The notes below the pieces were generated by a model. That model had not been told where the DNA came from, made no database searches, and saw nothing but the letters and a program-made list of their open reading frames with translations. The translations under genes were made by a program, and so were the position numbers. Positions 7,212-31,845 of a stretch of DNA of 64,000 nt are shown in pieces. Origin of the DNA: an uncultured Gammaproteobacteria bacterium (lineage in GTDB: Bacteria > Patescibacteriota > Patescibacteriia > Magasanikbacterales > GWA2-37-8); contig CAZHYG010000001.1 in NCBI GenBank assembly GCA_964536615.1, positions 6,200-70,199 of the forward strand, written 5' to 3'. How positions within the stretch are numbered: position 1 is the first letter of the stretch; every line of letters begins with the position of its first letter.

Positions 7212-7288
7212 TGGGTCGGTAGTTCAACTGGTTAGAGCACTGCCCTGTCACGGCAGAAGTTGCGGGTTCGAGTCCCGTCCGACCCGCC
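7212..7288 (+). tRNA. tRNA-Asp (anticodon GTC)
   Basis: Cloverleaf folds by hand: acceptor GGGTCGG/CCGACCC, anticodon loop CTGTCAC (GUC), T-loop TTCGAGT, encoded CCA; hairpin CCAC-ataa-GTGG plus T7 follows directly. Confidence 0.9.
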
Positions 7289-7402
7289 AGTTATTTCAAC
7301 ATAGAAACTCCACATAAGTGGTGTTTTTTTGTTTTAGTCTAGCGGAAATCGAGCTCACAACTTTTTTACTTTGAGATACCGAGAAGTTCCTCTCTTTGCT
7401 CC

Positions 7403-8661: not shown

Positions 8662-8804
8662 ATAGCGGAAAAAATTCAAATTTCAGAATCCCTGCCACAT
8701 GCTGGTAGGGTTCTTTTTTGTATTTGTATGGAGCGTACTTGACCATACGCAAACTTTTTGCTAACATCTTTTGTTGTTGGAACAAACCATGGAGGCAAGA
8801 GGGT

Positions 8805-9053
8805 ATGCGCGCGCAAAAATCAAGATTCTCTAACCACCGCAACTGGCTTCAAGCCGTCGTTCACTGGAACGGCGGTCCGGTCGAGTGTGCCGACCACTTC
8901 AAGTTCGATGACGGTCGGCTCAGGGGGCGGGTCCAGGTCGCCATGACGGTGTACTTCCCGGGCCTCATCGAGCTCGGGGTGGGTGCAACCTTCGGCGAGT
9001 GTGTGGCAGAACTGGAGTCGCGATTTCCCGATCGCTTCAGCGCTTCAGCCTGA
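8805..9053 (+). CDS. Hypothetical small protein (82 aa) at the start of a high-GC block
   Basis: GGAGG SD-like sequence upstream (ggaggcaagagggtATG); GC-rich codon usage with GC3 bias. Confidence 0.35.
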   Translation: MRAQKSRFSNHRNWLQAVVHWNGGPVECADHFKFDDGRLRGRVQVAMTVYFPGLIELGVGATFGECVAELESRFPDRFSASA

Positions 9054-9205
9054 TCGCACCCTGTCATCCATCCGAAACCAACAAGGAGGCAGCCTGGCCT
9101 CGTCGCATTCGTGCGGCGGGGCCTTTTCAATATGTATTCGCAACCTTGACCACAAGGTTCTTTTTTAGTATAAATTTCAGTTAGGTTAACCCAAGGAGAA
9201 GTGCC

Positions 9206-10243
9206 ATGGCGATGATTGATAGTCTTCCGGATAGGATCAAGCCCTATTGTCAGAACCCCGAGCTTACGGAGGTTCTGATCTATAAGATGAGGCTGATGGC
9301 CGCAGGTGAGATGTGCAAGGGTGATGATGTCATTTTGGCGCTACTTGGTCTTGCTGGTTTGGAGATCAAGGATTATCAGGCGCGAGAGGTTGCTCGACAT
9401 CTCATTAAGGTAGGATGGCTTGAGTTGGTTGGGGAAGATGATCGCTACGCTTTCACCGCTCGTGCAAGAAAGTGTAGCCAAGACCCTGCGGTCAAGCAGC
9501 GGTTTGATGAAATCAGCGCCGCACAGGATCGTTCTAGCTCTCGAAACAAGGTTCCTTCACCCAAGTCTGCCCGACTCGATCTCATTAGGAGGGTGGCAAG
9601 CAGAGACGGATCCGCCCCAAACTCCACTAGATCTGGCGGTGTTCCAGGCCTTTCACAGGACAGACTGGATATGTTGTTGCCGTTGTTTGTGGCGACGGAG
9701 GGTGGGAGCTTTTTCGTTGAAGCTGCTCGGAGAGCTAAAGAGCTTGGTTTCAGCACAACTCAAGCGTTCAACGGTACGCTTATGCTGCTCAAGCAAGCAG
9801 GGTGGCTGACGAAAGTTGCATATGGTGTAGTGCAGTGGGATCTGGAGAAGGTCCCGCCGAAGTGGCGTGAAGCGCTGCCAAAAAAGAGCGAGCTGTCTGC
9901 TTCTGAACAGGTTGAGGAAGCTTCTGAAACCAGCGAAGGTGCGGAAGATGGTGGTGGCGCTGTGACAGTTGAAGGCGAGTCTGCACCTGTCTCCGAAGTA
10001 GAGGGGGGCGAGAAACCTGATAGCGAATCGTCTGGTGACGAAGAAGTTGATGAAGATGTTCAGGTAGAAGTTGTGGTTGAGTCAGCGTTGCAGACTGATC
10101 AAATCGGCGAGTCGGAACCGCAGCGATTGTTTGGGTTGTTGTTGGCGGTCACTGTTGAAGGTCTCTACCGTCAGATTGAGTGCATGCCAAGAGAACTCCA
10201 GATCATGGTTCTCAATGCGCTCAATCAGCGGATTAATGAGTGA
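9206..10243 (+). CDS. Hypothetical protein (345 aa) with two similar N-terminal helical modules and a strongly acidic E/D/S-rich C-terminal region; high-GC foreign gene
   Basis: AAGGAG SD 8 nt upstream of the ATG. GC3-rich codons. The internal segments ...VILALLGLAGLEIKDYQAREVARHLIKVGWLEL... and ...FVEAARRAKELGFSTTQAFNGTLMLLKQAGWLTKV... resemble each other and look winged-helix-like. Acidic tail EEASETSEGAEDGGG...DEEVDEDVQVEVVVE. Confidence 0.6.
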   Translation: MAMIDSLPDRIKPYCQNPELTEVLIYKMRLMAAGEMCKGDDVILALLGLAGLEIKDYQAREVARHLIKVGWLELVGEDDRYAFTARARKCSQDPAVKQRFDEISAAQDRSSSRNKVPSPKSARLDLIRRVASRDGSAPNSTRSGGVPGLSQDRLDMLLPLFVATEGGSFFVEAARRAKELGFSTTQAFNGTLMLLKQAGWLTKVAYGVVQWDLEKVPPKWREALPKKSELSASEQVEEASETSEGAEDGGGAVTVEGESAPVSEVEGGEKPDSESSGDEEVDEDVQVEVVVESALQTDQIGESEPQRLFGLLLAVTVEGLYRQIECMPRELQIMVLNALNQRINE

Positions 10244-10340
10244 AGCAGATCCAGAAGGGGTAATTCACTCGTGTTAGGAATTAGGAGGGGTGTGCGGCGA
10301 GCCACATTAAAGCGCTTAATTGGCGTGCTCGCATATCTCA

Positions 10341-12442: not shown

Positions 12443-12958
12443 ATGAAAAAAATAGCGTCTGGTTTATTAGTTGGAGCTGTGGTATTGTCTGCCGTTCCGT
12501 TTTTGGTAAAAACCGTATCTGCTAACGATGATGCCAGTTCGGTTTCTGCAAGTTCTTCCACTCAAGATGTGTTGGAGCAAAAAAAACAAGAAATGGAACA
12601 GTTGCGTGAAGCTCAGAAGCAAGAAATGGAACAGAAACGTGAAGAGATGAAACAAGCTCTTGAGCTTAAAAAACAAGAATTAGAAAAAGCGCGTGAAGCA
12701 AAGAAGCAGGAAATGGCACAGAAGCGCGAAGAGATAAAAAAGAAAGAAGAAGCACGCAAAGCTAGAAATGCCGCCTATCGTGCCGCAGTTAAAAAAGCTC
12801 AAGCAGACCACAGGGCTGCGATTGTCGCTGCTAACAAAGCATATCAAGAAGCGTTAAAAGAAGCTAAAAAGTTGCTCTCCGCACCGCTTGTAATAGAAGT
12901 GCCGACATCAACTATGCCAGCCACCAGCACAACTTCAGCATCTTCCACTGCTATCTAG
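12443..12958 (+). CDS. Secreted low-complexity coiled-coil protein with KQEMEQ(K/L)RE repeats
   Basis: Signal peptide MKKIASGLLVGAVVLSAVPFLVKTVSA. Tandem KKQEMEQLREAQKQEMEQKREEMKQ repeats. ST-rich C-terminus. Confidence 0.6.
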   Translation: MKKIASGLLVGAVVLSAVPFLVKTVSANDDASSVSASSSTQDVLEQKKQEMEQLREAQKQEMEQKREEMKQALELKKQELEKAREAKKQEMAQKREEIKKKEEARKARNAAYRAAVKKAQADHRAAIVAANKAYQEALKEAKKLLSAPLVIEVPTSTMPATSTTSASSTAI

Positions 12959-14312: not shown

Positions 14313-14354
14313 AAATAATATTTGTGCCACATGATGCCGTACAAGGCATTTCTG

Positions 14355-14772
14355 TGGAGGTGGCGAGAGTTGAACTCGCGTGTAGATAACTATGACTAAA
14401 CCGTCTACATACTTAGTGTCTCTTGGTGTGTCCTGGGCCAATAAAAGAGGACGAAAATTGGCTCAGCGAGCCGAGGAGACTTCACGATGCGATAATCGGC
14501 ATTACCGCCTCGCTACACTCAATGAATAACACCGTGGTTCGGTTATTGAGCATTGCCGATACGATGTCTCAAATCACGAAGGATCTGAGATAACCAGCAT
14601 GGTTCTTAGGCCATTACTGGAGCAAAGTTGGTGCTGAAAGCGTTAGCTACAGCAGACTTTACTTTTGATAACAAGTTTGCACTTATTATGTTGCTCCGTG
14701 TGATTTACGAGGAAAAGAGCTTCCTCGGTATGCAAGTGTAGCCAGAAGCTCCTATCGAAGCCCGGCACCCCC
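14355..14772 (-). ncRNA. ssrA: tmRNA (ssrA)
   Basis: On the minus strand the 5' end is GGGGGTGCCGGGCTTCGA... The 3' end ACGCGAG-TTCAACT-CTCGC-CACCTCC-A gives a tRNA-like T-arm plus acceptor stem pairing with the 5' GGGGGTG. An internal tag ORF starts at a GCA AAC resume context (ANLLSKVKSAVANAFSTNFAPVMA-stop). It lies immediately downstream of smpB. Confidence 0.85.
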
Positions 14773-18415: not shown

Positions 18416-21400
18416 ATGCTTAGAGAGCGTGTTTCCAACTCTGACTTTAAAGGCGCAGAAATCGGTAAGTATAAAAAAGGCAAGCGAGTAGTCGTTAATA
18501 TTGAAGGTGAGTGGCAAGTGCGAGAACTGTTTGCGCCTGCGGCTGTTGAAAAAGGCAAGCTAAAATTGACTCTTGATAAAGGTGATGAAATTTTTGTCGA
18601 TTCTCCTCCGAGAATTGTAAAATTTTCCAAGTTAGACACTTTAACCGACGATCGAAAAGGCGGGGATTTTGTTGTTCATGGTGCATTCGCCACTCAGGAT
18701 GGTCGTTTGGAATATAATCTTACAACACCTGACGGCAAGATGTATAAGGGTATACCGGAAGAATTTTTGGATGTCTGGTCAAAAACTGTGGCTATGGAAG
18801 CTGAGGTTGAAGATTTAGAAAATAATATACAAGCATTAGGGGTAAAAGCACAGAAAGATTTACATGAAAAAATAAGCAAATTAAAAACTGCCTTGATGGG
18901 TACTTTTGAAAATTTACCCAAAGATTTTAAGGCAATGACAAAATCAGGAAAAAAAGATGTTGCTAGTGCAGTCAAAAAAATTAAATCTTTGCATGCCGAG
19001 GCCGCTCGGCATATTGATGATTTGAGATTAAAAATAGACGAAGCTAAAGTTAATGGTGCCGGTAAAAAATCAAAAATCGAGCACACAGAGACTGATACAG
19101 ACAAGCAAACTAGAAAAGCGCAGGAAGAAGGCTCTGCCGCGTTTAAAACAAAAAAAGCAAAATCAGTGAAAGAGTTCATGGGAAAACGGCTGGAACAGGA
19201 CAAAGAAGAAGCGTTGGCAGATAAAAAAAGATCTGTTCGCAATGAATACGAGAGTAAATTAAAAGAATGGGAAGATCAAAAAAGAGCCATGGCTCGTCCG
19301 GAACCAAAACAGCCAAATTATAAGGCTATTCAGCTTGACGCTGTTGAAGAAAACACTATTAGGCAAGATTACGATAAGCAACTTGCACTAATGCCTCAAA
19401 AAATGGAATACGAAAATGCTATGGATATTAATCGCCACCTCGAGGATGGTTTTAACAGTCGGCGTACGCAGAAGCTTGATGAAGCCCTTGATGCAAAAAG
19501 AAAAAACACTAAAGATCCTAAGGCTGCTTTGAGCAAGCGCGAAGTAGCGATGGTTGAGAAAGAATTGCGCACCACATTGATTGGAGAGGCGGTAGAAGAT
19601 TTTTCAGAATTGAGTGCTGCGTTAGAGCAAAAAAGAAAAGCAATGGCTGCAAAAGAAGCAGACCCGAAAGCTGCCGGGGTTGATCCAAATACAGGCGATT
19701 ATCTATCTACTCGGCAAGAAGAAATCAACGCTCGTTTGTACGATGCTTTTATAAAAGAAAGAATTAAGCAGTACGATGTTGCTCGAAAAGATTTAGAAAG
19801 AGAAGAAAAAGATGAAATTTTTAAAGCATTAGAAAATAAAAAAGAAGAAGCGTATAAAAAGTTTTTAGCAGACAGCGCCGAGTGGGATATAGAAAAAAGC
19901 AAGCTTAAGAAGCGGCCTGATGAGCCTGTGGAAAGCAGTGTTGTATTAACAAAAGACGAAGAAAAACAGGTGGCTGCAAAATCAAAATTTGAAACTATTA
20001 AATATTTGGTTGATCAAAATACAGACCTTAAGTTTAGTTTGGTTAAAAAAAGAATGGAGAAAGCAAAAACAGATCCAGATAAAGAAAATATCATTACATT
20101 ATCAAACGGTGAATCTGATTATAATGATGATAAAAAAGATGAAGTAAATGCCGAATTATTTGATGAGGTGTTGGCAGATTGGGAAAAAACCTATGAGTTT
20201 AAAGAGAAAGAACACGATGCCAATGCAGAAATTTTTGATTTTACAAATGAAATAAATAAAATAAATGCTGCTGCGCTGGACTGTGAACAGTCTATTCCGC
20301 AAACAAATGGAGTACCGGATAAGCCGTACCAGGGAGTGTATAAGGAGCTGTTAAAAAATAAAAAAGATTTTGCCAACACTCTGACAGCGTTAAGCGGTAT
20401 AGATGCTGCTAAAAAAGCAGGTTTCATTGGAGCGGCCGATGGGCAAGAAGAGTTGTATAAGGCGCGCGAGCGAGAGGCCGAAAAAATTAATAAAATTATA
20501 GATGGGCTTACTCAACAAATAGAAAAAATAAAAACCATTGAAAGCTTTGGCGAGAAATTCGAACAAACAGAAAAAATGACGCCAATAGATTTGCGGTCTT
20601 CTTTGGTGGAAAGAATTTTGAGTTTAAATGTTGATCAAGCCAAAAAAGCTATGAAAGCGTTGTATCGCGGTGATGCAACGGAAGAATTTAAACAACTAAT
20701 TGGCGATACGCCGCCGGCTGGAATTTCTGAAGTTGAGTTACGCAAGGCAGGCATCAAAGATTGGGCTGATTTTAAAGAATTGTGGGATGCAAGATTGGCC
20801 AAGGAGGTGGCGGTCAATATGGAAGAAATGGCTAAGCAAAGAATTTTACAAAAAGTGGCCGAAGCTATGGATAGCCTTAGTGGTGTTTGGGAAAAAATTA
20901 AAGCCATAAAAGGACAAATGACACTTCGGGCTGGCTTAAGTGCTCTGCTTGTGGGCGGATCGGCAATGACGGCTCGAACACTGCTGGGTAGTTTTTCTGA
21001 AGTGCTTCATAGTGCGGCGGTAATGGCAGGCGGCGCGGCAGGCGGCGCGGGAAAATGGTTGGTGGGCAGTAAGCTTTTTGGTAAAGACAGCGCCTGGGGA
21101 AAAGATGGCGCAAAAGCGATGCAAAAATTACAAGCCAAAACAGCAGATGATTTAGTTGATAGTATTGTGGACGAAGCTTTTGAATTTGCGTTTTCTCCGG
21201 TTCAGCCGCCAGTGCAAAAAGGATTTTTTAGAAAAATGTGGTCTTTTGTTTCTAAACCAAGCGAGCAGGAATTTACTAAAACGCAGCATAAAAAACACAT
21301 GCTTGACGGCATGCCAATGATGAGTTCGGTAATTGCCGGTACGATTAGAGATATAACCGGAGGCAGTCTTGAAGTAGAAACTGCTGAAGGCAAAGTTACC

Positions 21401-24127
21401 TTAAGTGGCGCAAATAGAATTAAGTTTGAAAAAGCATTAGGTCGTCTAGAAACCCAAAATCCCGAAGAAGAGCAGGTTAAAAATCTAGCTTTGGTTTTTG
21501 CAAAAATGTCTCAAAAAGGCGATGAGCTGCAAGCTCAAATGAAACATTTGGGACCAGGCAAGGCATCGCTTGGCGATACATGGCTGCAAAATTATTCTGG
21601 TCGCGGCAGTTTGGGCAAATCGGTGGCGATAAATTCCGCTTTAGCAGGTGTATTTTTGGCATCGAGTACAGCCAGGGCTGCGTTTGGCGCGGTTGTTGGT
21701 GCGTATAGTGGCTATAAAACCGGCGAAAGAATGTTTGCCAAAAAAGAACAGCAAGTTGCTAAAGAAAAATTGTTGGAAAAAATTTCTCATTTTACTTACG
21801 GAGTCCAATCATTTGAGGCGCTTACTCCTCAAGCAAAAATTGCGTTTAAAGCTGATTTAATATACCTTAAGAAATTCTTACACGGAAATGCCGCTCAGGA
21901 AGATCTATTGGCCGCAGTGCAAATTACCGAAGCTGGGCCAGTCGTAGACCAAATGCTTCTTTCGCAGATAGAAAGCTTGATTCACGAGGCGGAAGATATG
22001 GGTGCGTTAATAGAAAATAAAGAAGATGGGATGAATTTAGAAAAAGTATTGGCAGCCATGCAAGAATATCAGGGCAAAATTTCTGAAAAAGATAAGAAAA
22101 AAGTTGGTGAGCGATTTGCAAGATGGCTGGCAAAAGGAGTGTACAAGTTTGGCGGTGCCGCAGTCGGTGGCGCGGCAAGTGCTGGAATATATCTTGTTGG
22201 CGGGCCATTAATTGGAAAGGCTGTTGGAGCATTGCGTTCAAAACTTGGTTTGGGTGCAACACATGATCTTGTATCAACTGAGTCTGCAAAGAACATTGCT
22301 GTAGAACATATCGACGGATTAGAATCATACCAAGACAACTCCAGTGCTTTAGAGCGTGCAGATGGTTTGGTTTCGTATCCAGACGGTTCCGGTTTTGCAG
22401 AAAATATAAATCCAGATGTAGCAAACTTTGCAGCCGAACATCATTTAAGCGAACATTCAGCCCAATATCTAAATCAATTTGGTTCGTTGCAAACACACCC
22501 AGAATCGCTTAATAGAATTTTGGAAGCAAGCCATATTGGAGGTGATGGCCGCTCGCATTTTACCGGCAGTAAATTAGATAATCTTATAGAAGTTGGCGGT
22601 GAGCGTCGCGCTGTGATTTTTGAAGAGTTGTTAAAACATGATAAGCAAGCAGCGATTAAATTTTTGGAAGATCAAGATTTTAGCAAACAGCACCTTACCC
22701 ACCTGGCTGTTTTTGCAGACAAAAAAGGCCATGTTGACTTTGTTAAATTTGTAGAGAAATATAATCCAAATGATAAAAAAATGTCCTTGGCTTTGTTTAA
22801 AGCCATGCAAGGTAAAGAAAACACCGAGCTGGCCAATGCTGGGTTTGTCCGTGCAGCCACAGCTGATCATACAGGCCGAATAGTTCAAGTAAAAGGCGGG
22901 GTGGAATATTTCGGCTTGGATAAAAATGGTAAGCCAATTTTGAGCGGAGATGGCCAGGTGATGGTGAGAGAAACTATTTTGAGGACAGGTTCAGCAGCTG
23001 AACATAACGAAGGTTTAAGTACTGATGATAAATTATGGGCAAATGCCAATGTTATGCGCGGTATGCGGGCTGACGGCACCCCATTTGAAGGTGATACCAA
23101 AAATGTTTTGCCTGAATTTTCACCTAAAGGTATCGCTCAGTTTATGCAAGGCGAAGCAGATAAAGCTCAGTTTGCTAAAATGGGCGAAGAGCATATCAAT
23201 GCGTTGGACAGACCGATTGGTAGAAATGATGTTACTCTTACCAAATTTAACGTAACCCATTTACTGGATAAAGAGGGTAATCCAATTGAGCGAAGGACTT
23301 TTGCAGAACAGCCTGCCGAATCTCCGGTACCAGATAATGCGTTCAAACCACTTAAGAATCCTCAAACAAGCAAAGAAATTGCTGGTAAAACAGCCGCTAT
23401 CTATACTGCTGATAAACTAGTGGAAAGAGGGCAGGTTGTGGGAAATAGAGGGGTGAGAAGTAGTTCTCCTTCAGAAGAAATGGTTTCTCGAAGTGAATTT
23501 GCGCAAACTGAAGAAGTTAATTCTTCTCCTTTGGTTGAAGCTGGATCAGAAACAAAACCCGCAGCAAAAGTTGAAACTACACCCAATACTTTAGAGTTAA
23601 CGGAAGCGCAGAGAGATTATGTAGATAAGCTAAATAATGTATTTAGATCTCTTACTGAAAATGAAATCGGTCAAAAAATGGACTCATACACGTTTAAAAA
23701 TGATTCTGAAAATGTAATATATAATGCTATAACTAATGAGTCAGCTTTTAAAAACTTCAGAGACTATATTGAAAGCCTTTCAAATAATAAGCAACCAAGC
23801 TTAAGTCAGCAAGAAATAAGAGAGTTTGACAACCTGTTAAAAACTTACGATGCTGGTAACCAAAATTGGTACAAGATGATTAAAAATGACGAGCTTCGCT
23901 TGATGCTTGATCCTAGTGACGCATCTATGGTTGCAAATAATAGTCATGCAGTAAGAATTTGGGACCAGGAAAAACAGGAAGAGTTGTTTATTACCAACCC
24001 TCAGTATACTTTTGTAACAAAAGGTGATAGCCTCTTGAAAATGGATGGTGATAGAGTGGTGGATACATGGAAAAACTACAAAGAAGCGATTGCTACCGCT
24101 AGACAGTCTTCAAATATGAATAGATAA
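18416..24127 (+). CDS. Giant (1903 aa) K/E-rich coiled-coil low-complexity protein with Gly/Ala-rich amphipathic segments and a ~500-aa globular C-terminal region
   Basis: Uninterrupted 5.7-kb ORF in host-like codon usage. Segments such as AGGAAGGAGKWLVGSKLFGKDSAWGKDG and GGAAVGGAASAGIYLVGGPLIGKAVGAL. A strong hairpin terminator lies downstream. Confidence 0.75.
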   Translation: MLRERVSNSDFKGAEIGKYKKGKRVVVNIEGEWQVRELFAPAAVEKGKLKLTLDKGDEIFVDSPPRIVKFSKLDTLTDDRKGGDFVVHGAFATQDGRLEYNLTTPDGKMYKGIPEEFLDVWSKTVAMEAEVEDLENNIQALGVKAQKDLHEKISKLKTALMGTFENLPKDFKAMTKSGKKDVASAVKKIKSLHAEAARHIDDLRLKIDEAKVNGAGKKSKIEHTETDTDKQTRKAQEEGSAAFKTKKAKSVKEFMGKRLEQDKEEALADKKRSVRNEYESKLKEWEDQKRAMARPEPKQPNYKAIQLDAVEENTIRQDYDKQLALMPQKMEYENAMDINRHLEDGFNSRRTQKLDEALDAKRKNTKDPKAALSKREVAMVEKELRTTLIGEAVEDFSELSAALEQKRKAMAAKEADPKAAGVDPNTGDYLSTRQEEINARLYDAFIKERIKQYDVARKDLEREEKDEIFKALENKKEEAYKKFLADSAEWDIEKSKLKKRPDEPVESSVVLTKDEEKQVAAKSKFETIKYLVDQNTDLKFSLVKKRMEKAKTDPDKENIITLSNGESDYNDDKKDEVNAELFDEVLADWEKTYEFKEKEHDANAEIFDFTNEINKINAAALDCEQSIPQTNGVPDKPYQGVYKELLKNKKDFANTLTALSGIDAAKKAGFIGAADGQEELYKAREREAEKINKIIDGLTQQIEKIKTIESFGEKFEQTEKMTPIDLRSSLVERILSLNVDQAKKAMKALYRGDATEEFKQLIGDTPPAGISEVELRKAGIKDWADFKELWDARLAKEVAVNMEEMAKQRILQKVAEAMDSLSGVWEKIKAIKGQMTLRAGLSALLVGGSAMTARTLLGSFSEVLHSAAVMAGGAAGGAGKWLVGSKLFGKDSAWGKDGAKAMQKLQAKTADDLVDSIVDEAFEFAFSPVQPPVQKGFFRKMWSFVSKPSEQEFTKTQHKKHMLDGMPMMSSVIAGTIRDITGGSLEVETAEGKVTLSGANRIKFEKALGRLETQNPEEEQVKNLALVFAKMSQKGDELQAQMKHLGPGKASLGDTWLQNYSGRGSLGKSVAINSALAGVFLASSTARAAFGAVVGAYSGYKTGERMFAKKEQQVAKEKLLEKISHFTYGVQSFEALTPQAKIAFKADLIYLKKFLHGNAAQEDLLAAVQITEAGPVVDQMLLSQIESLIHEAEDMGALIENKEDGMNLEKVLAAMQEYQGKISEKDKKKVGERFARWLAKGVYKFGGAAVGGAASAGIYLVGGPLIGKAVGALRSKLGLGATHDLVSTESAKNIAVEHIDGLESYQDNSSALERADGLVSYPDGSGFAENINPDVANFAAEHHLSEHSAQYLNQFGSLQTHPESLNRILEASHIGGDGRSHFTGSKLDNLIEVGGERRAVIFEELLKHDKQAAIKFLEDQDFSKQHLTHLAVFADKKGHVDFVKFVEKYNPNDKKMSLALFKAMQGKENTELANAGFVRAATADHTGRIVQVKGGVEYFGLDKNGKPILSGDGQVMVRETILRTGSAAEHNEGLSTDDKLWANANVMRGMRADGTPFEGDTKNVLPEFSPKGIAQFMQGEADKAQFAKMGEEHINALDRPIGRNDVTLTKFNVTHLLDKEGNPIERRTFAEQPAESPVPDNAFKPLKNPQTSKEIAGKTAAIYTADKLVERGQVVGNRGVRSSSPSEEMVSRSEFAQTEEVNSSPLVEAGSETKPAAKVETTPNTLELTEAQRDYVDKLNNVFRSLTENEIGQKMDSYTFKNDSENVIYNAITNESAFKNFRDYIESLSNNKQPSLSQQEIREFDNLLKTYDAGNQNWYKMIKNDELRLMLDPSDASMVANNSHAVRIWDQEKQEELFITNPQYTFVTKGDSLLKMDGDRVVDTWKNYKEAIATARQSSNMNR

Positions 24128-24360: not shown

Positions 24361-24492
24361 GTTTCTAATTAGCGCGTCAATGTAATAGTTGATGTGCGAA
24401 CCGGTAACGGTAACACTCGTGCGCTTCGTGTGGTCGAGTGACCTTGCGAAGCAAACGGGAGTGAGGCGCCTTAGATGCGCCTTGGAGGTTCC

Positions 24493-25224
24493 ATGCACAC
24501 GCCTTCCTCGGGTACGCAGCAGATCACTGGCCAGCAGGCCGCCGTCAAGACCCAGGTCATCGATCGTGGCGGCTGGTCGAGCTGGGCCAGGCTCGCCTTC
24601 GTCGCGCTGGCTGTGATGCTCATCACCGGGCTCATCGCCTGGTCGGTGGTGGGTGGCGGCAAGAAGCCGTCCGCCGCGGGTGGCAGCGTCCACCACGCCG
24701 CCGACGGTGGTGTTGCCAGCGACGACAAGCCGGTCGTCGAGGCCACGAAGCCGCCCACGGTCGCGCTCGACCTGAGCCCGCTCAACACGAGCTTGAACGA
24801 GCTCAACACCACCTTGGGTGGCATGGGCGATAGCATCGCCAGCAAGGTCGGCGAGAAGATGGACGAGAGCAACGAGGTGATCGTCCAGAAGCTCGACCAG
24901 CTGCTCGCGCAGCAGGCCAAGCCGGATGATTCGTCCGGTGGCTCGGCAGGGGACAAGACCGACGACACCAAGGTCAACGGTGGCAGTGATGCCAAGCCAC
25001 CGTGCGACGATCATCTCAAGGCGCTCACGATCGAAGATCGTGTTGGCGCGCTAGAGACGTGGCGTACCGGGGTCGACAAGACCCTCAAGCGCCACACCCG
25101 GCAGATTCGTCGGATCAACGACCGCCTCGGTCAGCTCAGTGGTGCGCAGGTCACCGACCTGCCCGGCTACAAGACCGCGGTGGCGACCCACAGCGCTGTC
25201 GTGCACCTGAAGTACGACAAGTAG
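24493..25224 (+). CDS. Membrane-anchored (single N-terminal TM) coiled-coil protein; high-GC foreign gene
   Basis: GGAGGT SD 5 nt upstream. GC3-rich codons. TM WARLAFVALAVMLITGLIAWSVV, then a hydrophilic helical region. The antisense ORFs on the other strand are R/D-rich and judged spurious. Confidence 0.6.
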   Translation: MHTPSSGTQQITGQQAAVKTQVIDRGGWSSWARLAFVALAVMLITGLIAWSVVGGGKKPSAAGGSVHHAADGGVASDDKPVVEATKPPTVALDLSPLNTSLNELNTTLGGMGDSIASKVGEKMDESNEVIVQKLDQLLAQQAKPDDSSGGSAGDKTDDTKVNGGSDAKPPCDDHLKALTIEDRVGALETWRTGVDKTLKRHTRQIRRINDRLGQLSGAQVTDLPGYKTAVATHSAVVHLKYDK

Positions 25225-25573
25225 ATTCCTCCTCAACCAGGCTGTCGTCAGATCGAGAAATCGAACTGACAACGCCTCAAGAGGGGAAGACGGGATGTTC
25301 TTCGCAAGAAGAGCATCCCGGGAGAAAATCATCTTCTTAAAACATATCATGTATTAGGAATATGATAAGCTCTAACAAAGCGAAAAGAAAATATAGTTCT
25401 TTAAAATTAAAAAACAAACAAAAGTAACCGTTGTTCCGTATTTATTATATTTATTAATATATATAAATAAATATATATAGTAAGTACGGAGCGACGGTTA
25501 AAAACACCGTCACCAACAACTCCCAGGCCCAACGGCCTGAAACCGGCCGTTGTGGCCAACCTTTGCCGGCTCT
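25217..25573 (+). repeat. 357-bp intergenic cassette, copy 1 (identical to 26458..26814)
   Basis: Begins at the last codons (caagtag) of the upstream gene. Contains two GNRA-tetraloop hairpins (GTCAGATCGA-GAAA-TCGAACTGAC; GGATGTTCTTC-GCAA-GAAGAGCATCC) and a TATCAT/ATGATA inverted repeat. A 44-bp AT-rich block is flanked by the imperfect inverted repeat aaccgttgttccgta/tacggagcgacggtt, followed by GACGGT-taaaaac-ACCGTC and CAACGGCC-tgaaacc-GGCCGTTG hairpins. Confidence 0.85.
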
Positions 25574-25601
25574 AATGGAGCCAGAATTGCGAGTTCAGTC
25601 A

Positions 25602-26465
25602 ATGAAGACGATCCTTTGCGTGATGATGCTTGCCATCGCAACCTTCGGCGGCAACGCCAAGGCACAGCCCCGGGTCACCGTGACGCAGGACGTGCCGCCC
25701 CCGGAGCCCTGTGCTCCGGGCCAGCCGCGTGACACGGTCTCGCACGACGCCTCGGGCGTCGACGAGACCATCAAGGTCAACGGCCTCGAGACCCCGTGTC
25801 TCGAGCTCACGGTCCACCTGCCCAAGGCGATGGATCCGGCGCTTGCGCCGATCATCCCCACGGCCCCCATCGACAACGATGGTGGCCTGGATCGCCACGG
25901 CACGAGCACCAACGATCTCATCGAGATCTCGCGCACGGCTGCCTCGGCGGCCAACGAGGTCGCAAAGGCTCAGGCGCGGTGGAACTTCGGGCTGGCGAGC
26001 CAGGTGCTCGCGGTCTCGCACAAGGGCACGACCGCCTCGTATGGCCTCCTCGGCCTGTACGGTGTACGTGCCACCCGGGCCACGCTCGTTCAGCTGCAGG
26101 GTGGTCTCGGCAAGGACAGCGAGGGGAATCTCGCTATCGGCGCCGCGCTCATGGCGGGATACAAGGTCGGTGAGCGTGCTGCTGTTGGCATCGCGCTCAC
26201 CGGCACCGATTCCATCGATCAGAGGGGAGACAAGGATCGCGAGGTCCTCATGCTCCGTTCGGTCGGGGTCGGCCCCAGCGTCACGATGACGTTGGGCAGC
26301 ACCGTCAACGTCACCATCGCTGGTGGCGTGGCATGGAGCGGTAAGCCCATTGATGGGCGTCGTGTGGACGGTGTCCTGGTCGAAGAGCCGGGGCGTTCTT
26401 ACGCCTTCGGTGGCTACGGCACGGTCACGCTGAACCTCGGCCTCAAGGGCCTGTTCAGCAAGTAG
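25602..26465 (+). CDS. Secreted protein (signal peptide, beta-rich C-terminal half); high-GC foreign gene
   Basis: MKTILCVMMLAIATFGGNAKA-QP signal peptide. Alternating hydrophobic beta-strand-like pattern (VTMTLGSTVNVTIAGGVAWSG...YGTVTLNLGLKGLFSK). GC3-rich. Confidence 0.6.
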   Translation: MKTILCVMMLAIATFGGNAKAQPRVTVTQDVPPPEPCAPGQPRDTVSHDASGVDETIKVNGLETPCLELTVHLPKAMDPALAPIIPTAPIDNDGGLDRHGTSTNDLIEISRTAASAANEVAKAQARWNFGLASQVLAVSHKGTTASYGLLGLYGVRATRATLVQLQGGLGKDSEGNLAIGAALMAGYKVGERAAVGIALTGTDSIDQRGDKDREVLMLRSVGVGPSVTMTLGSTVNVTIAGGVAWSGKPIDGRRVDGVLVEEPGRSYAFGGYGTVTLNLGLKGLFSK

Positions 26466-26814
26466 ATTCCTCCTCAACCAGGCTGTCGTCAGATCGAGAA
26501 ATCGAACTGACAACGCCTCAAGAGGGGAAGACGGGATGTTCTTCGCAAGAAGAGCATCCCGGGAGAAAATCATCTTCTTAAAACATATCATGTATTAGGA
26601 ATATGATAAGCTCTAACAAAGCGAAAAGAAAATATAGTTCTTTAAAATTAAAAAACAAACAAAAGTAACCGTTGTTCCGTATTTATTATATTTATTAATA
26701 TATATAAATAAATATATATAGTAAGTACGGAGCGACGGTTAAAAACACCGTCACCAACAACTCCCAGGCCCAACGGCCTGAAACCGGCCGTTGTGGCCAA
26801 CCTTTGCCGGCTCT
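26458..26814 (+). repeat. 357-bp intergenic cassette, copy 2
   Basis: Base-for-base the same as 25217..25573 by reading, again starting at the caagtag stop region of the preceding gene and ending at gccggctct just before the next gene's RBS. Confidence 0.85.
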
Positions 26815-26834
26815 TCGGAGCCATGGAGAAAGAC

Positions 26835-28185
26835 GATGAAGAAGCTGATGATGTATCTGGTGTGCGTGGCGGCCCTCACGGGCTGCCTCCTCGAGAATGG
26901 CAAGGTCGTCGACGAGACGACCGACGCTGGTGTCGACGCCTCCGAGAGCAAGTGTACGGTCACCATCCGAGCGACCGACAGCATCGCCAACGAGAACGGC
27001 GACACCGCCATGGTGCAGTTCGAGCGGAGCAACTGCTCCCTCGACAAGCAGCTCGAGGTCAAGTTCGACCTCAGCGGTACGGCCAGCAGCTCCGACTACG
27101 TGGGGCTCGCGGAGTGGTACGCCCTCATCCCTGCCGGTCAGACCGAGGCCACCATCGTGGTGGTCCCGTTCAACGACACGATCGACGAGAGCGACGAGAC
27201 CCTGATCTTCACCATCCGTCCGGAGCCCCACCTCATCGTGGGTGCGCCGGCCGCGGCGACGGTGACGATCACCGATGACGACAGCCCGCCGCCCACGCCG
27301 TTCCTGAACTTCAGCTGCAGCCCCAACGGCATCACTGCCGGCGGTAGCAGCACCTGCACGTGGACTTCGAACGCCACGGCGTGCACGCTCTCCGGTGGCC
27401 AGTTCGGCTCCGGGGTGGCTCAGGCGGGTAACGGTTCGGTCGTGGTGAGCAACATCACCACGACCACGACTTTCGGCATGACCTGTAACAACGGTCAGAC
27501 CAAGTCGTCGACGGTGACGGTCAATACGCAGCAGCAGTGCACTGGCAACGGTACCCTGACGGCGAACACCCTGTTCATCGTCGTGGGGAGCCCCATCGAC
27601 TTGGACGCGACGTTCAACTGTCCGTCCGGTACGATCGCCCGAGTCGAGTTCAAGGTGGGTAGCACCACCCTCTGCACCGACACGAGCGCGGCCTACCACT
27701 GCGACTGGGACAATGCCACTGTCGGCACGCACACCGTCATCGCGACGGCGTACTCGGCGAGTGGCACCCAGCTCCAGCAGACCAACCCCCTCCAGATCGA
27801 GGTGGCGCAGACGTCGCAGCAGGTGTCGTGTCACGGCCTCGGCCTCTACTTCTCCAACACCCAGGTGAACAACATCACCCGGTGCACGAAGTGGAGCGCT
27901 ACGGGGTCGGGTACCGACATCGCCAAGTCGACGTTCGTGGATGGCGGTCTGGGCGCTTGCGCCCTGACCTGCTACGACCTCACGGGTAACACGGTCCTGC
28001 CGCTGGCGGTGACCGGTGTCTGGCTGCAGAACGGAACGAGCGACGTCACCCGGTGGTACACCAGTGGCTGCGCGCGGCTCCCGTGGCACCCCGCTGCCGA
28101 GCCCGACCAGGCTGGTGGCGCCTGGGACCGGCTTTGCGATCGTTCGGTCGCCAGCCTGAGTGGTCCGCCCAACACCAACCAGTAG
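26835..28185 (+). CDS. Lipoprotein with a Calx-beta-like domain and Cys-rich Ig-like repeats; high-GC foreign gene
   Basis: GGAG SD. MKKLMMYLVCVAALTGC lipobox (LTGC). Calx-beta-like motif DYVGLAEWYALIPAGQTEATIVVVPFNDTIDESDETLIFTI. Many Cys and Thr/Ser-rich beta segments. Confidence 0.6.
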
Positions 28186-28502
28186 TGGTGGACAAAGGTT
28201 CCCGAACCTAAAAAATCGGAAATGTCCGCGCCATTGATGTGAATCGAGGGTGTGGCAAGAGTCTTATCCGCGGGTTCTTCGGAACCCGCGCGATTGAATC
28301 AGTTTCTTACTTGTATAGAATAGGGAACTGATACTGATCGAAAACAATTAATACTAGTGTCAAAAAATAGAAAGTAGGTTACAATAGACCTACTTTAAAA
28401 TTATCATTCGAGATTTGAAAATAGTTTATTTTTAAATCTCGGGCAATAATACCCGACAAGTTCGGCTCATTTCCCGCCTGATGCGGGTGAATCGGGGTTG
28501 CA

Positions 28503-29249
28503 ATGAAGATTTTCTGCTGTCTGGTGCTAGTCATCACCGCTTGCTCCTTTAACCCGTCGGGTTCGCTCGACGGAGAGGTAGATGCAATGGGTGATGGAGT
28601 AGTCCTCACCCCCGACGCCCAGATCGATGCGCCCATCGATGCTCCGCCGCCCTTGGTGGCGAGCATTGTGGGAGACTGCTACGTCCGCCCGCAGGCTCCG
28701 CCTGCCGACGGGGTGACCGTGGGTCGTCCCAAGACCCTGGTCTGCCTCGCGGAAGCGAGGCAGTGTACGGCGACCAACAGCCGCGTTCCGAGCGCTCCGC
28801 TTCCCATGACCCCACCGGTCCAACCTGGTGTGGGCGAGTGGGAGGTTTCGTTCACCCCGGTGTTCACCGGTGTGAACGAGTTCACCTTCACCTGTGAAGG
28901 TGATGTGGGTAGTGTGGCGACTGCAGGACCGCTGGCACTTCATGCCATGTCCTTGCAGATCACCGAAGGAGTTTCGGTGATCGACCAGAGCCTCGGGCAG
29001 TACCAACTGCTCAATCGCAACGGTCGAATCCGGCTCGTCTGGGGTATCCCGGACGATCCAACGCCCCAAACGTGCGGCAACTCGGTTTCCGGGCTGCCAA
29101 CGGTCAACATCGGAAGTGGAGGGCGTCCGTGCGTGGGCGAAATCTACGACCTGCTTGTTCCAACGAACGGACCAGCGGGGACAGTGGTTCTTCGCTTCTC
29201 GTCGGCGTTGTATGTGGGGTCTGTGTCTGTTGCAGTGCCGGCCTCGTAG
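28503..29249 (+). CDS. Lipoprotein, paralog 1 of a tandem pair; high-GC
   Basis: MKIFCCLVLVITAC lipobox-like signal. 611 bp (28604..29214) are identical to 29474..30084. Confidence 0.6.
   Translation: MKIFCCLVLVITACSFNPSGSLDGEVDAMGDGVVLTPDAQIDAPIDAPPPLVASIVGDCYVRPQAPPADGVTVGRPKTLVCLAEARQCTATNSRVPSAPLPMTPPVQPGVGEWEVSFTPVFTGVNEFTFTCEGDVGSVATAGPLALHAMSLQITEGVSVIDQSLGQYQLLNRNGRIRLVWGIPDDPTPQTCGNSVSGLPTVNIGSGGRPCVGEIYDLLVPTNGPAGTVVLRFSSALYVGSVSVAVPAS
28604..29214 (+). repeat. Tandem duplication unit, copy 1 (611 bp identical to 29474..30084)
   Basis: Direct comparison of the two blocks shows identity through ...cggcgttgtatg, then divergence; the period is 870 bp. Confidence 0.85.
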
Positions 29250-29387
29250 GGTTGGAGGGTGTAGTAAGAGGAAGAAATTCGAGGTGTAGACAGTGTTGGC
29301 AGGGTATCTTCCTCACAGAAATTTTTCCATCATTATTTGGTGGTGGAAAATAAGCTGTGCAAATCAAGCAAGAGGCCAGGAGGCCAC

Positions 29388-30119
29388 ATGTCTCTCAGAA
29401 CATTGTTTGCAGTGTTGTTGACGATAGTTTGTGGTGGCGGATGTAATCTGGTCTTCGGACTGGATGAGGTTCGCCTCACCCCCGACGCCCAGATCGATGC
29501 GCCCATCGATGCTCCGCCGCCCTTGGTGGCGAGCATTGTGGGAGACTGCTACGTCCGCCCGCAGGCTCCGCCTGCCGACGGGGTGACCGTGGGTCGTCCC
29601 AAGACCCTGGTCTGCCTCGCGGAAGCGAGGCAGTGTACGGCGACCAACAGCCGCGTTCCGAGCGCTCCGCTTCCCATGACCCCACCGGTCCAACCTGGTG
29701 TGGGCGAGTGGGAGGTTTCGTTCACCCCGGTGTTCACCGGTGTGAACGAGTTCACCTTCACCTGTGAAGGTGATGTGGGTAGTGTGGCGACTGCAGGACC
29801 GCTGGCACTTCATGCCATGTCCTTGCAGATCACCGAAGGAGTTTCGGTGATCGACCAGAGCCTCGGGCAGTACCAACTGCTCAATCGCAACGGTCGAATC
29901 CGGCTCGTCTGGGGTATCCCGGACGATCCAACGCCCCAAACGTGCGGCAACTCGGTTTCCGGGCTGCCAACGGTCAACATCGGAAGTGGAGGGCGTCCGT
30001 GCGTGGGCGAAATCTACGACCTGCTTGTTCCAACGAACGGACCAGCGGGGACAGTGGTTCTTCGCTTCTCGTCGGCGTTGTATGGCGGATCAATCAGTGT
30101 GGAGGTCCCGGCCTCGTGA
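29388..30119 (+). CDS. Lipoprotein or secreted protein, paralog 2 of the tandem pair; high-GC
   Basis: AGGAGG SD 5 nt upstream of ATG (MSLRTLFAVLLTIVCGGGC). The body is identical to paralog 1 except the N-terminal signal region and the last ~10 residues. Confidence 0.6.
   Translation: MSLRTLFAVLLTIVCGGGCNLVFGLDEVRLTPDAQIDAPIDAPPPLVASIVGDCYVRPQAPPADGVTVGRPKTLVCLAEARQCTATNSRVPSAPLPMTPPVQPGVGEWEVSFTPVFTGVNEFTFTCEGDVGSVATAGPLALHAMSLQITEGVSVIDQSLGQYQLLNRNGRIRLVWGIPDDPTPQTCGNSVSGLPTVNIGSGGRPCVGEIYDLLVPTNGPAGTVVLRFSSALYGGSISVEVPAS
29474..30084 (+). repeat. Tandem duplication unit, copy 2
   Basis: Identical to 28604..29214. Confidence 0.85.
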
Positions 30120-30327
30120 TTCGCACAAGGAGAAGCACCGAGGTTGAGGTTGTATATGGCAAGCGCTTCTCCTGTCTCGCAATATTATTATCAAAAATTG
30201 GTAATAATATCTGAGATAAAAAAACAGACAAACCAATCTATAATTGTTCATCAAACTTGGTGAATAACCATAGACAGATTTATCTGCCTAACAAAATTAC
30301 CATCCGATTACCCGAATAAATAATTTA

Positions 30328-31845
30328 TTACTTATTTAGGTGACTCTCCCGGATGGTTTTTTGTTGTGAAATCCAATATCCCCATATTGCCCATAACCAC
30401 CAGATTACTGGTGTGTGGCGCAGCATGTTATCGGAAACGCTTAGGGTAAGATAGATAAAAATACTGGCAATAAAAATAATATTAAGCCAGTTATTTTTTA
30501 AACCAAATATAATTTGTTGATAGAGTAGAGTAATAAAAATAAAAACAAACAATACCAAACCAACAACCCCTGATTCAAAAGCAACTTTAATGTAGTCGTT
30601 GTGAGCTTCGGAAGTGTTATCCCATAGATTTTCAACATCTTTATTATCGTCCCAAACGCGAGAAAATGTTCCGTATCCATAACCAACTATCCAATGTTCT
30701 TTAAATAACGGTATGATTTTTGCCGCCAAATTGGTGCGCCAGCGAATGGAATCGGCATCTTGGTTGCGACTGGTAAGACGAGCAATGAGTGTATTTGCTT
30801 GCAAGTTTACATTAAAATTATTTATTAGATATCTATTTGCTGGATAAAACAGACCATAAAACAGCACAATTGCCGCGCACGTATAAAACAATAGTTTTCT
30901 GTAGTACATTGCACCAACAAAACAGCCAAGTATAACTGTTCCAATCCAAGCAATCCGTGTGTACGTAAGGGCAATTATGCAAATCAGGGTAAAAATAATG
31001 AGTTTTATTTCCGGTTCTTGTTTTAAATCAAAAAAGTCCATTTTTTTAAATCCATGTATGCTGATTCTTGAAATCAGTTCGGATACTGCCAGCAATAATA
31101 GCGTAAGCGCAAAAGTTGCTAAGACGTTGGGGTGGGCAAAGGTGCCGTAGATGCGGTTTGCCACATCGTCAATATCCACACCTGTTTTGGTTATAAATTG
31201 GTATGCGCCAACGGCAAAAGGAATAATGGCTGCGCCAATAGCGCTGGCAAGAAAATATTTTTTAAATGCCAGTGGGTTTTTTTGGGACATGACATATGTA
31301 ATGGCAAGCAAACCGAATAAATTGCTTAGTTTAAGTGTTTCAATTATAGTTGCGGACATTGAATATGTATAGAATACCGAGATGCCGCACCAGAGAATAA
31401 ATGCTGCCCAGATGCTGGCTAGCGGCAATTTTTTTGCATACTGGTAATTTTGCGCGATAAATAAAATTGTCCATACTAGTAGAAATACCGATAGCGCCGC
31501 GTTAATATTAAAATTAAAAAATCGGATAGAAAATAAGTTGTAATCTCGCCAATAATCCATGGCCGGACGCAGCGCTAACAGAATTAAAATAAAATATTCT
31601 CCTAGTATTTTTTGTAAAATAATAAAACCGGCCATCAAAAATGCCAGAGTATCAAGGTTGGTAAAAGGATTGATTAAAATAAACAACAATAAAAATATGA
31701 CAAGTATCGCGCTGTAAGAAAAGTTTTTTATATGCATCATATATAGATAATCTTTTCTTGAGTATAGCATAATAATATGATAAACTAAAGATATTAAAGA
31801 GATATGCCTGTGCAGAGAAAAAAACATAAAAAAGCCGCACGACAT
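30328..31845 (-). CDS. O-antigen ligase/polymerase family (Wzy_C-like) polytopic membrane protein
   Basis: ~12 TM helices. A conserved-looking ...SEAHNDYIKVAFESGVVGLVLFVFIF... segment (HN...E.G..G) is typical of the O-antigen ligase family. Confidence 0.55.
   Translation of the reverse strand: MSCGFFMFFSLHRHISLISLVYHIIMLYSRKDYLYMMHIKNFSYSAILVIFLLLFILINPFTNLDTLAFLMAGFIILQKILGEYFILILLALRPAMDYWRDYNLFSIRFFNFNINAALSVFLLVWTILFIAQNYQYAKKLPLASIWAAFILWCGISVFYTYSMSATIIETLKLSNLFGLLAITYVMSQKNPLAFKKYFLASAIGAAIIPFAVGAYQFITKTGVDIDDVANRIYGTFAHPNVLATFALTLLLLAVSELISRISIHGFKKMDFFDLKQEPEIKLIIFTLICIIALTYTRIAWIGTVILGCFVGAMYYRKLLFYTCAAIVLFYGLFYPANRYLINNFNVNLQANTLIARLTSRNQDADSIRWRTNLAAKIIPLFKEHWIVGYGYGTFSRVWDDNKDVENLWDNTSEAHNDYIKVAFESGVVGLVLFVFIFITLLYQQIIFGLKNNWLNIIFIASIFIYLTLSVSDNMLRHTPVIWWLWAIWGYWISQQKTIRESHLNK

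Follow-up and report, generated by a model that had tools for sequence, protein, structure and literature searches.

Probable concerted evolution of a tandem lipoprotein-type gene pair with homogenized cores and distinct ends

The 64,000-nucleotide stretch of bacterial chromosome analyzed here (from contig CAZHYG010000001.1, ~40% GC; hereafter the window) carries two adjacent forward-strand genes for lipoprotein-type envelope proteins, which share an identical 611-bp core but differ at both ends. In our view these genes are, in all likelihood, an old tandem pair of paralogues in which the cores have been homogenized by recombination and the ends have been kept distinct. Comparison of sequences across related lineages indicates that the duplication predates the lineage splits, and that homogenization of the cores occurred in at least two lineages. 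On the same comparison, the pair displays all three features that we tested for in a concertedly evolving pair: paralogues that resemble each other more than they do their orthologues, a duplication older than the lineages, and discrete tracts with mosaicism. Concerted evolution of prokaryotic paralogues, tandem ones included, is an established process, although known cases, such as the tuf, fla, mtrA and amo genes, are uncommon (PMC6053082). The phenomenon described here is of this known kind; the lipoprotein family that carries it is uncharacterized and restricted to one clade.

The tandem pair and its identical cores

Copy 1 (28503-29249, +) encodes a 248-residue protein beginning MKIFCCLVLVITAC, with a lipoprotein-type leader, an acidic tether and two predicted beta-sandwich domains. 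Copy 2 (29388-30119, +) encodes 243 residues beginning MSLRTLFAVLLTIVCGGGC, and combines an apparently derived signal peptide and a shorter tether with the same body. Core 1 (28604-29214) and core 2 (29474-30084) match at 611 of 611 positions with a period of 870 bp, as the initial annotation had proposed and a base-by-base check now confirms. Self-BLAST of the window likewise pairs 28604-29247 with 29474-30117, at 98.1% identity across 644 bp, and a separate repeat search recovers this pair too. Identity over 611 bp cannot arise by chance within 64 kb. Each block lies inside a complete forward-strand open reading frame (ORF) with a start codon, a leader peptide and a stop codon.

The differences at both ends that had been remarked upon from the sequence also stand. 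The 5′ coding parts of the two copies are essentially unalignable (37/77), and the copy-1-specific portion (28503-28603), which comprises the signal peptide and the start of the tether, is 84% identical to its orthologue in L004, a related genome introduced below. At the other end, tip 1 (29215-29249; …VGSVSVAVPAS and stop) reads YVGSVSVAVPAS and tip 2 (30085-30119; …GGSISVEVPAS and stop) reads YGGSISVEVPAS, and only 21 of the last 35 nucleotides agree. Neither tip has been homogenized.

A hairpin-rich leader before each copy was likewise borne out by folding. The AT-rich stretch upstream of copy 1 (28186-28502, +; GC 0.27-0.45) contains several stable hairpins (RNA fold z = -7.0) and sigma-70-like promoter matches at 28294-28321, 28357-28385 and 28378-28407 (+), while the inter-copy spacer (29250-29387, +) carries hairpins (z = -3.6) and a strong Shine-Dalgarno sequence, AGGAGG, ahead of the ATG of copy 2. 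Since no promoter-like site on the forward strand was matched within this 138-bp spacer, copy 2 is probably transcribed together with copy 1, through the hairpin-rich spacer. The exact copy 2 protein is on record as P0003. The NCBI call of copy 1 (P0012, 220 aa) begins at an internal methionine, with loss of the signal peptide.

Age of the duplication and homogenization by lineage

Four lineages were compared, drawn from members of the 90% cluster, their contigs, and one GTDB-representative metagenome-assembled genome (MAG). We denote the window lineage W; lineage A is that MAG, L004, a related species-level genome from a Polish wastewater/river study; lineage J comprises L005-L007, from three JGI samples with contigs of 133-754 kb; and lineage E comprises L012 and L013. 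L004 is syntenic with the window, with 87% identity over 14 kb, and possesses both genes. Its two cores are also identical at 611/611 positions, with tract ends at homologous nucleotides. Between W and A, by comparison, the cores differ at 79 of 611 sites, 59 of them third codon positions, which amounts to a synonymous divergence (dS) of 0.52 and a ratio of nonsynonymous to synonymous divergence (dN/dS) of 0.084; within W and within A, dS is 0. Together with the substitutions by codon position that separate copy 1 (13/11/70) and copy 2 (17/6/58) from their J orthologues, these values indicate purifying selection on the cores.

Lineage J captures a different state. It has the same two-gene architecture, but the two cores differ at 57 of 611 sites (dS 0.31), and the copies differ by 14 amino acids. 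The J1 core is only 6 differences from the A core, and the J2 and E2 cores combine W-like with A-like segments in a mosaic. Outside the cores, sequences group by position and not by genome: W and A share tip 1 in full (35/35), tip 2 agrees at 30/35, and the 259-bp junction formed by tip 1, the spacer and signal peptide 2 is 93% identical between W and A (241/259) and unchanged between A and J (263/263). The spacer alone is 93.5% identical between W and J.

These comparisons place the duplication in time. In the distant relatives L003, L015-L017 and L019, a single gene occupies the corresponding site beside a Wzy_C (O-antigen-ligase-like) gene, which in the window lies at 30328-31845 (-; Pfam PF04932, E = 1.4e-21); the duplication therefore arose within the window's clade. 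As the junction is orthologous in three lineages whose cores are separated by a dS of ~0.5, the duplication predates those lineages, and because the J cores differ, core identity is not universal and is gained lineage by lineage. Neither a peptide-pattern scan nor a junction-specific 34-mer recovered further lineages from the JGI metagenome_contigs.

For tandem pairs, the standard rival to be excluded is independent duplication (PMC6053082), here a very recent event in each lineage without any conversion. Both the tandem arrangement and the perfect 611-bp identity would suit such a history. A fresh duplication, however, cannot create 259 bp of unique junction, comprising a different tip, a spacer, and a start codon and signal peptide that are both new; nor would it leave that junction orthologous (93-100%) in three lineages with cores that differ by a dS of 0.5, or give lineage J the same architecture with 9% diverged cores. 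We give this explanation next to no credence. The initial annotation had offered "very recent duplication or gene conversion," of which conversion survives; a recent duplication is at odds with the junction shared by three lineages. A simple model of tandem duplication would predict that the copy 2 leader was recruited from the ancestral 3′ flank. This idea was dropped, as local alignment of the junction with the region that follows copy 2 gave no significant match (12 of 500 shuffles reach its score).

How might the cores have been homogenized? Homologous recombination between the direct repeats would overwrite one core with the other, whether by interlocus gene conversion, for example via break repair templated by the sister copy, or by equivalent cycles of unequal crossing-over. 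The tract would be limited to the stretch over which the paralogues can be aligned, and hence would end at the same nucleotides in every lineage. Leaders and tips would stay distinct because the 5′ ends are non-homologous and the tips 40% diverged; recombination has known homology requirements, on which basis we suppose that its intermediates are unable to enter heterologous leaders or tips diverged to this degree. In lineage A, copy 2 would have been overwritten by copy 1 after the split from J, a direction that offers the simplest reading because A and J are otherwise very close.

In a variant of this scheme, which follows a proposal made for tuf, the main cause of identity would be selection for two proteins of uniform function, and recombination would be no more than its vehicle. 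The core is indeed under strong purifying selection (dN/dS 0.08), and identity extends over all synonymous sites in two lineages. Yet identity at synonymous sites requires recombination, not selection, and lineage J tolerates its 14 amino-acid differences between the copies, such that selection as the principal cause seems very improbable.

Several observations weigh against recombinational homogenization of the pair, or temper it. Downstream of copy 2, A and J are ~3.5% diverged, against a core at 8.3% and a junction at 0%, and the heterogeneity of J could reflect a foreign copy-2 segment imported into J, as opposed to conversion in A. Because the two cores are identical within W and within A, homogenization within genomes is needed under either origin. 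Exact identity is also read from metagenome assemblies of short-read type, in which bubble-merging could hide differences, and "identical" may thus mean ~98% or more. Likewise, W and A have at least two copies, and the window lineage could have more, because the assembly-graph loop described below does not fix the count. Lastly, the leader of window copy 2 (…LLTIVCGGGC; TIVC/GGGC) fails the strict lipobox pattern.

The closest precedents are tufA/tufB and the tandem fla and mtrA pairs, where, as here, paralogues of one genome resemble each other more closely than orthologues of different genomes do, duplication preceded the lineages, and homogenization is recurrent, lineage-specific and bounded by limits of homology (PMC6053082). 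Unlike tuf, the present pair is arranged in tandem, with its 870-bp period, encodes an orphan envelope lipoprotein instead of a component of core machinery, and is found in a narrow uncultured clade. It differs from all of these precedents in that only an internal block is homogenized, with both gene ends distinct.

The metagenomic origin of these sequences raises the question of whether the pair is real. A hybrid single gene, composed of leader 1, core and tip 2, stands directly beside the Wzy-like gene in five short-read contigs, four of W type (L001, L002, L008, L009) and one of A type (L014), as might be expected if an assembler had duplicated a single real gene. Against this, the junction recurs in independent samples and assemblers, and in L010 and L011 it is closed on the core at both ends. 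These are MEGAHIT k=141 contigs from independent samples, each 1011 bp (870 + 141) with its first 141 nucleotides identical to its last 141; both form closed loops of 870 bp that match window positions 28604-29473 with 0 mismatches. Such loops are the form that a collapsed tandem repeat takes in a de Bruijn graph, and thus assemblers collapse this locus and do not duplicate it. The hybrid contigs are exactly those that collapse would yield, and in lineage J, where the cores differ, both copies assemble unambiguously on contigs of up to 754 kb. The assembler-induced duplication entertained in the initial annotation is accordingly turned on its head, with the pair collapsed in five contigs and the repeat unit emitted as a closed loop; we regard an artifactual pair as exceedingly improbable.

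The reciprocal hybrid, P0009 (leader 2, core and tip 1), occurs only on the two 1011-bp loop contigs. Together with P0001, P0007 and P0010, this protein is most likely a collapse chimera that has now entered public protein databases, although some of the hybrids may be real one-copy deletion variants. There is a practical warning in this: short-read metagenome assembly merges pairs of this kind into hybrid genes that have no real counterpart.

Were some of the hybrids real, the pair might serve as a recombination-driven device for variation. Unequal crossing-over would shift copy number (1, 2, 3 and so on) and make hybrid genes within populations, varying the dosage of a surface protein or swapping its ends, and the seemingly collapsed contigs would in part come from genuine one-copy cells. 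RecA acts readily on a perfect direct repeat of 611 bp, public records include in-frame hybrids of either kind (P0001/P0007/P0010 and P0009), and the surrounding island shows mosaicism between close lineages and a second homogenized repeat. Assembly collapse, however, explains every hybrid equally well, with P0009 confined to the 1011-bp loops; Pfam lists of the nearby genes include no invertase or recombinase; and both genes are complete, unlike silent cassettes. We consider such a device unlikely.

Other recombination-based systems were set aside more readily. A silent-cassette system of the pilS or vls type does not fit two copies that are each complete (start, Shine-Dalgarno, leader and stop) and under purifying selection. 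An integron-type or mobile cassette array was rejected given that no integrase or recombinase domain occurs among the scanned neighbors or in the Pfam lists of syntenic loci, and that the spacers differ from one another except for one duplicated module. Nor is a mobile element or prophage indicated, as no relative was found in viral contigs, no integrase or recombinase neighbors the locus, and no tRNA lies at the island borders.

A rare lipoprotein family

The protein belongs to a rare, near-orphan family found in one uncultured clade only. A word-indexed search of 5.8 billion proteins returned two clusters, an exhaustive HMMER search of 1.84 billion representatives returned 9 matches, and neither copy matched a Pfam (E <= 0.01) or NCBIfam family. 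Full-length distant homologues (P0014, P0016, P0017 and P0019) are 33-42% identical; P0002 and P0018 match in part. Members share a lipoprotein-type leader in which the cysteine is followed by F-N/S-P-S/G-G, an acidic tether rich in D, A and P, conserved cysteines, and a strikingly conserved C-terminus, Y-x-G-x-V/I-x-V/L-A/E-V-P-A/G-S. The cysteine and F-N/S-P-S/G-G leader is common to copy 1, P0002, P0014, P0016 and P0019, while P0018 has C-A-F-E-P-R-G; on this distribution, the N-terminus of copy 1 appears to be of the ancestral family type and the leader of copy 2 derived. Both types of tip (…VAVPAS and …VEVPAS) are present among the distant homologues.

Lipoboxes were assessed with a pattern resembling PROSITE PS51257, implemented as a regular expression in our own script in place of LipoP. 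Copy 1 matches it (FCCLVLVITAC, Cys14), as do P0002, P0014, P0018, P0019 and the third ORF of the island (ORF3). Among copy 2 orthologues, those of A and J match at Cys20 and that of E at Cys15. Lipoprotein leaders had been suggested for both window copies; the proposal is upheld for copy 1, while window copy 2 departs from the strict pattern that its orthologues match.

An AlphaFold2 model of copy 1 (predicted local distance difference test, pLDDT, of 76-92 over residues 45-248) is all-beta, with two sandwich domains that follow a disordered tether. Foldseek searches of the PDB returned only generic tandem pairs of immunoglobulin (Ig) and FN3 domains (E 4e-5 to 1e-3; template modeling (TM) score about 0.25-0.3). 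The modeled fold and the sequence features suggest a probably lipid-anchored, disulfide-stabilized, Ig-like envelope protein, possibly with an adhesin- or receptor-like role. The pair would then amount to two versions of one protein that differ in leader and tether length, and the different leaders may carry functional meaning, such as the diversification of targeting or anchoring that the initial annotation read from the swapped ends.

An alignment (E = 4e-20) pairs residues 89-164 with 25 repeats of P0015, an adhesin-type protein of 3793 aa resembling type IX secretion substrates, with PKD/Big/cadherin-like domains and CHU_C, which adjoins PorP/SprF. What is shared with repeat proteins of this type is the Ig-like beta-sandwich, a domain-level likeness at roughly 25% identity. 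Unlike P0015, the present protein is a two-domain lipoprotein of 250 aa, with a genomic context and a conserved C-terminal Y-x-G-x-V-x-V-x-V-P-A-S motif that are particular to its small family.

Two well-studied groups of surface proteins offer instructive parallels. LigA and LigB of Leptospira are lipoproteins built of tandem bacterial Ig-like domains, identical in their N-terminal halves and different at their C-termini, and the shared block has been attributed to partial duplication and recombination. The present pair resembles them in its lipobox leader, Ig-like beta-sandwich domains, and long identical block with divergent remainders. There is, however, no sequence relationship (no match to Big_2 or any other Pfam family), the Lig proteins are far larger, and their shared block takes in the leader, whereas the present pair shares the body and has different leaders. 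In Helicobacter pylori, paralogues among the bab and sab adhesins exchange segments by RecA-dependent gene conversion and yield chimeras, with the bab genes dispersed. These, too, are surface-protein paralogues that exchange segments, but exchange among bab genes diversifies or switches expression, while the visible outcome here is homogenization of a tandem pair.

The GC-rich island and its surroundings

The pair closes a 5.6-kb GC-rich island (24475-30119, +) in which five genes on one strand encode exported or membrane proteins, the first three genes being ORF1 (24475-25224), ORF2 (25605-26465) and ORF3 (26836-28185; Calx-beta/Big_7, Pfam). Island genes have a GC content of 0.61-0.66 and GC at third codon positions (GC3) of 0.68-0.89, compared with a GC3 of 0.32-0.36 in neighboring host genes; island spacers are 23-45% GC, and composition switches at ORF boundaries. 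No domain module common to the island genes emerged from BLASTP of copy 1 or P0002 against ORF3 (not significant, best E = 0.058). Public gene calls place several of these ORFs on the wrong (minus) strand, namely ORF1 and ORF2 in L005 (5940-6881 and 6938-8080) and ORF2 and ORF3 in L008 (5752-6726 and 6848-8242). Long antisense ORFs are a feature of GC-rich DNA. The plus strand is supported by signal peptides, Pfam matches and substitutions by codon position.

The initial annotation noted neither this GC-rich context nor a second repeat, which lies within the island. A 366-bp spacer module is duplicated behind ORF1 (25218-25583, +; fold z = -12.8) and ORF2 (26459-26823, +), and the two occurrences are 99.2% identical by self-BLAST. 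Each contains two terminator-like hairpins, an AT-rich hairpin of ~75 nt that includes U-G pairs and forms on the plus strand only, and a structured leader; the stem-loops show compensatory changes in a diverged copy. In lineage A the module copies are only 85.6% alike, and thus the module, too, appears to have been homogenized in the window lineage. Between lineages, conservation is higher for island spacers (94-99%) than for island ORFs (77-91%). At gathering thresholds, no known RNA family was matched in the structured spacers; look-alikes of microRNA precursors for the AT-rich hairpin were sub-threshold in a permissive scan and were rejected as meaningless.

Divergence of the island between lineages is about equal to that of the backbone, and so the island was not recently acquired. 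In relatives with a backbone only 65-75% identical, GC-rich lipoprotein genes with AT-rich spacers are found again at the Wzy-side site, including a distant single-copy homologue of the lipoprotein family with a GC3 of 0.72; the corresponding GC-rich loci are L004 1-5100, L005 5800-11650, L015 200-4170 and L019 1-3741. A high-GC donor genome was considered and rejected: none was found, and the family members that could be placed (P0001, P0002, P0014, P0016 and P0019) all lie in the same low-GC context beside Wzy. The genome of P0015 is 41% GC. Blocks with 0 differences between A and J alternate with diverged blocks in a recombination mosaic, and L004 500-2300 and L005 7050-8850, the orthologues of ORF2 and of the beginning of ORF3, diverge by as many as 13-35 substitutions per 100 bp, in what looks like allelic replacement by recombination within the island.

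It is conceivable, if rather doubtful, that this is a recombination-active surface-protein locus beside the Wzy-like gene, in which some force maintains both the ORF-precise GC-richness and the homogenization of cores and spacers. Candidates for such a force would be GC-biased recombination or repair, selection on the codons or messenger RNAs of exported proteins, or re-seeding from an unseen GC-rich partner.

Around the island, the chromosome encodes NAD-dependent DNA ligase, PPDK, MetRS, F-type ATPase, MurB, a Mur ligase, a GT4/MraY-like enzyme, a prepilin peptidase and transfer-messenger RNA (tmRNA). The right-hand Wzy_C neighbor is kept in, and anchors synteny across, L001, L005-L009, L015-L017 and L019. 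Just past the 3′ end of the Wzy-like gene, 30237-30327 is 82-83% conserved even in distant relatives with a coding backbone of 65-75% identity (L015 4265-4356, L019 3870-3934), and may be a terminator or some other retained 3′ element. Immediately 5′ of the island, 18416-24127 (+) is an ORF of 1903 aa (1925 aa in lineage J) with host-like composition and no Pfam or NCBIfam match. GC is raised again (52-60%) at 8800-10300, ~1.5 kb downstream of tRNA-Asp (7213-7289); this second patch contains two plus-strand ORFs, at about 8806-9053 and 9206-10243, with no Pfam match, and may be another foreign or atypical insert. Self-BLAST also detected a 78-bp tandem repeat (12575-12652 and 12662-12739, 81% identity) within the ORF at 12443-12958. 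The tmRNA (14352-14772, -; Rfam RF00023, 110 bits) has an unusual predicted tag, ANLLSKVKSAVANAFSTNFAPVMA, unlike the typical gammaproteobacterial tag, in view of which we have not relied on the unverified submitter label of L004, "uncultured Gammaproteobacteria bacterium."

If recombination has indeed homogenized these cores, the pair documents, at good resolution, a natural case of concerted evolution between tandem bacterial genes, with tract ends that are nucleotide-exact and set by the limits of homology, and with both states caught, converted in two lineages and unconverted in one. A maintained GC-rich island, if true, would represent a type of compartment, both compositional and genetic, that has not been described before, and its persistence, if not owed to repeated horizontal transfer, would bear on what sets base composition within a genome. 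For the organisms themselves, the constant position of this family beside envelope-biosynthesis genes makes it a candidate surface or host-contact factor.

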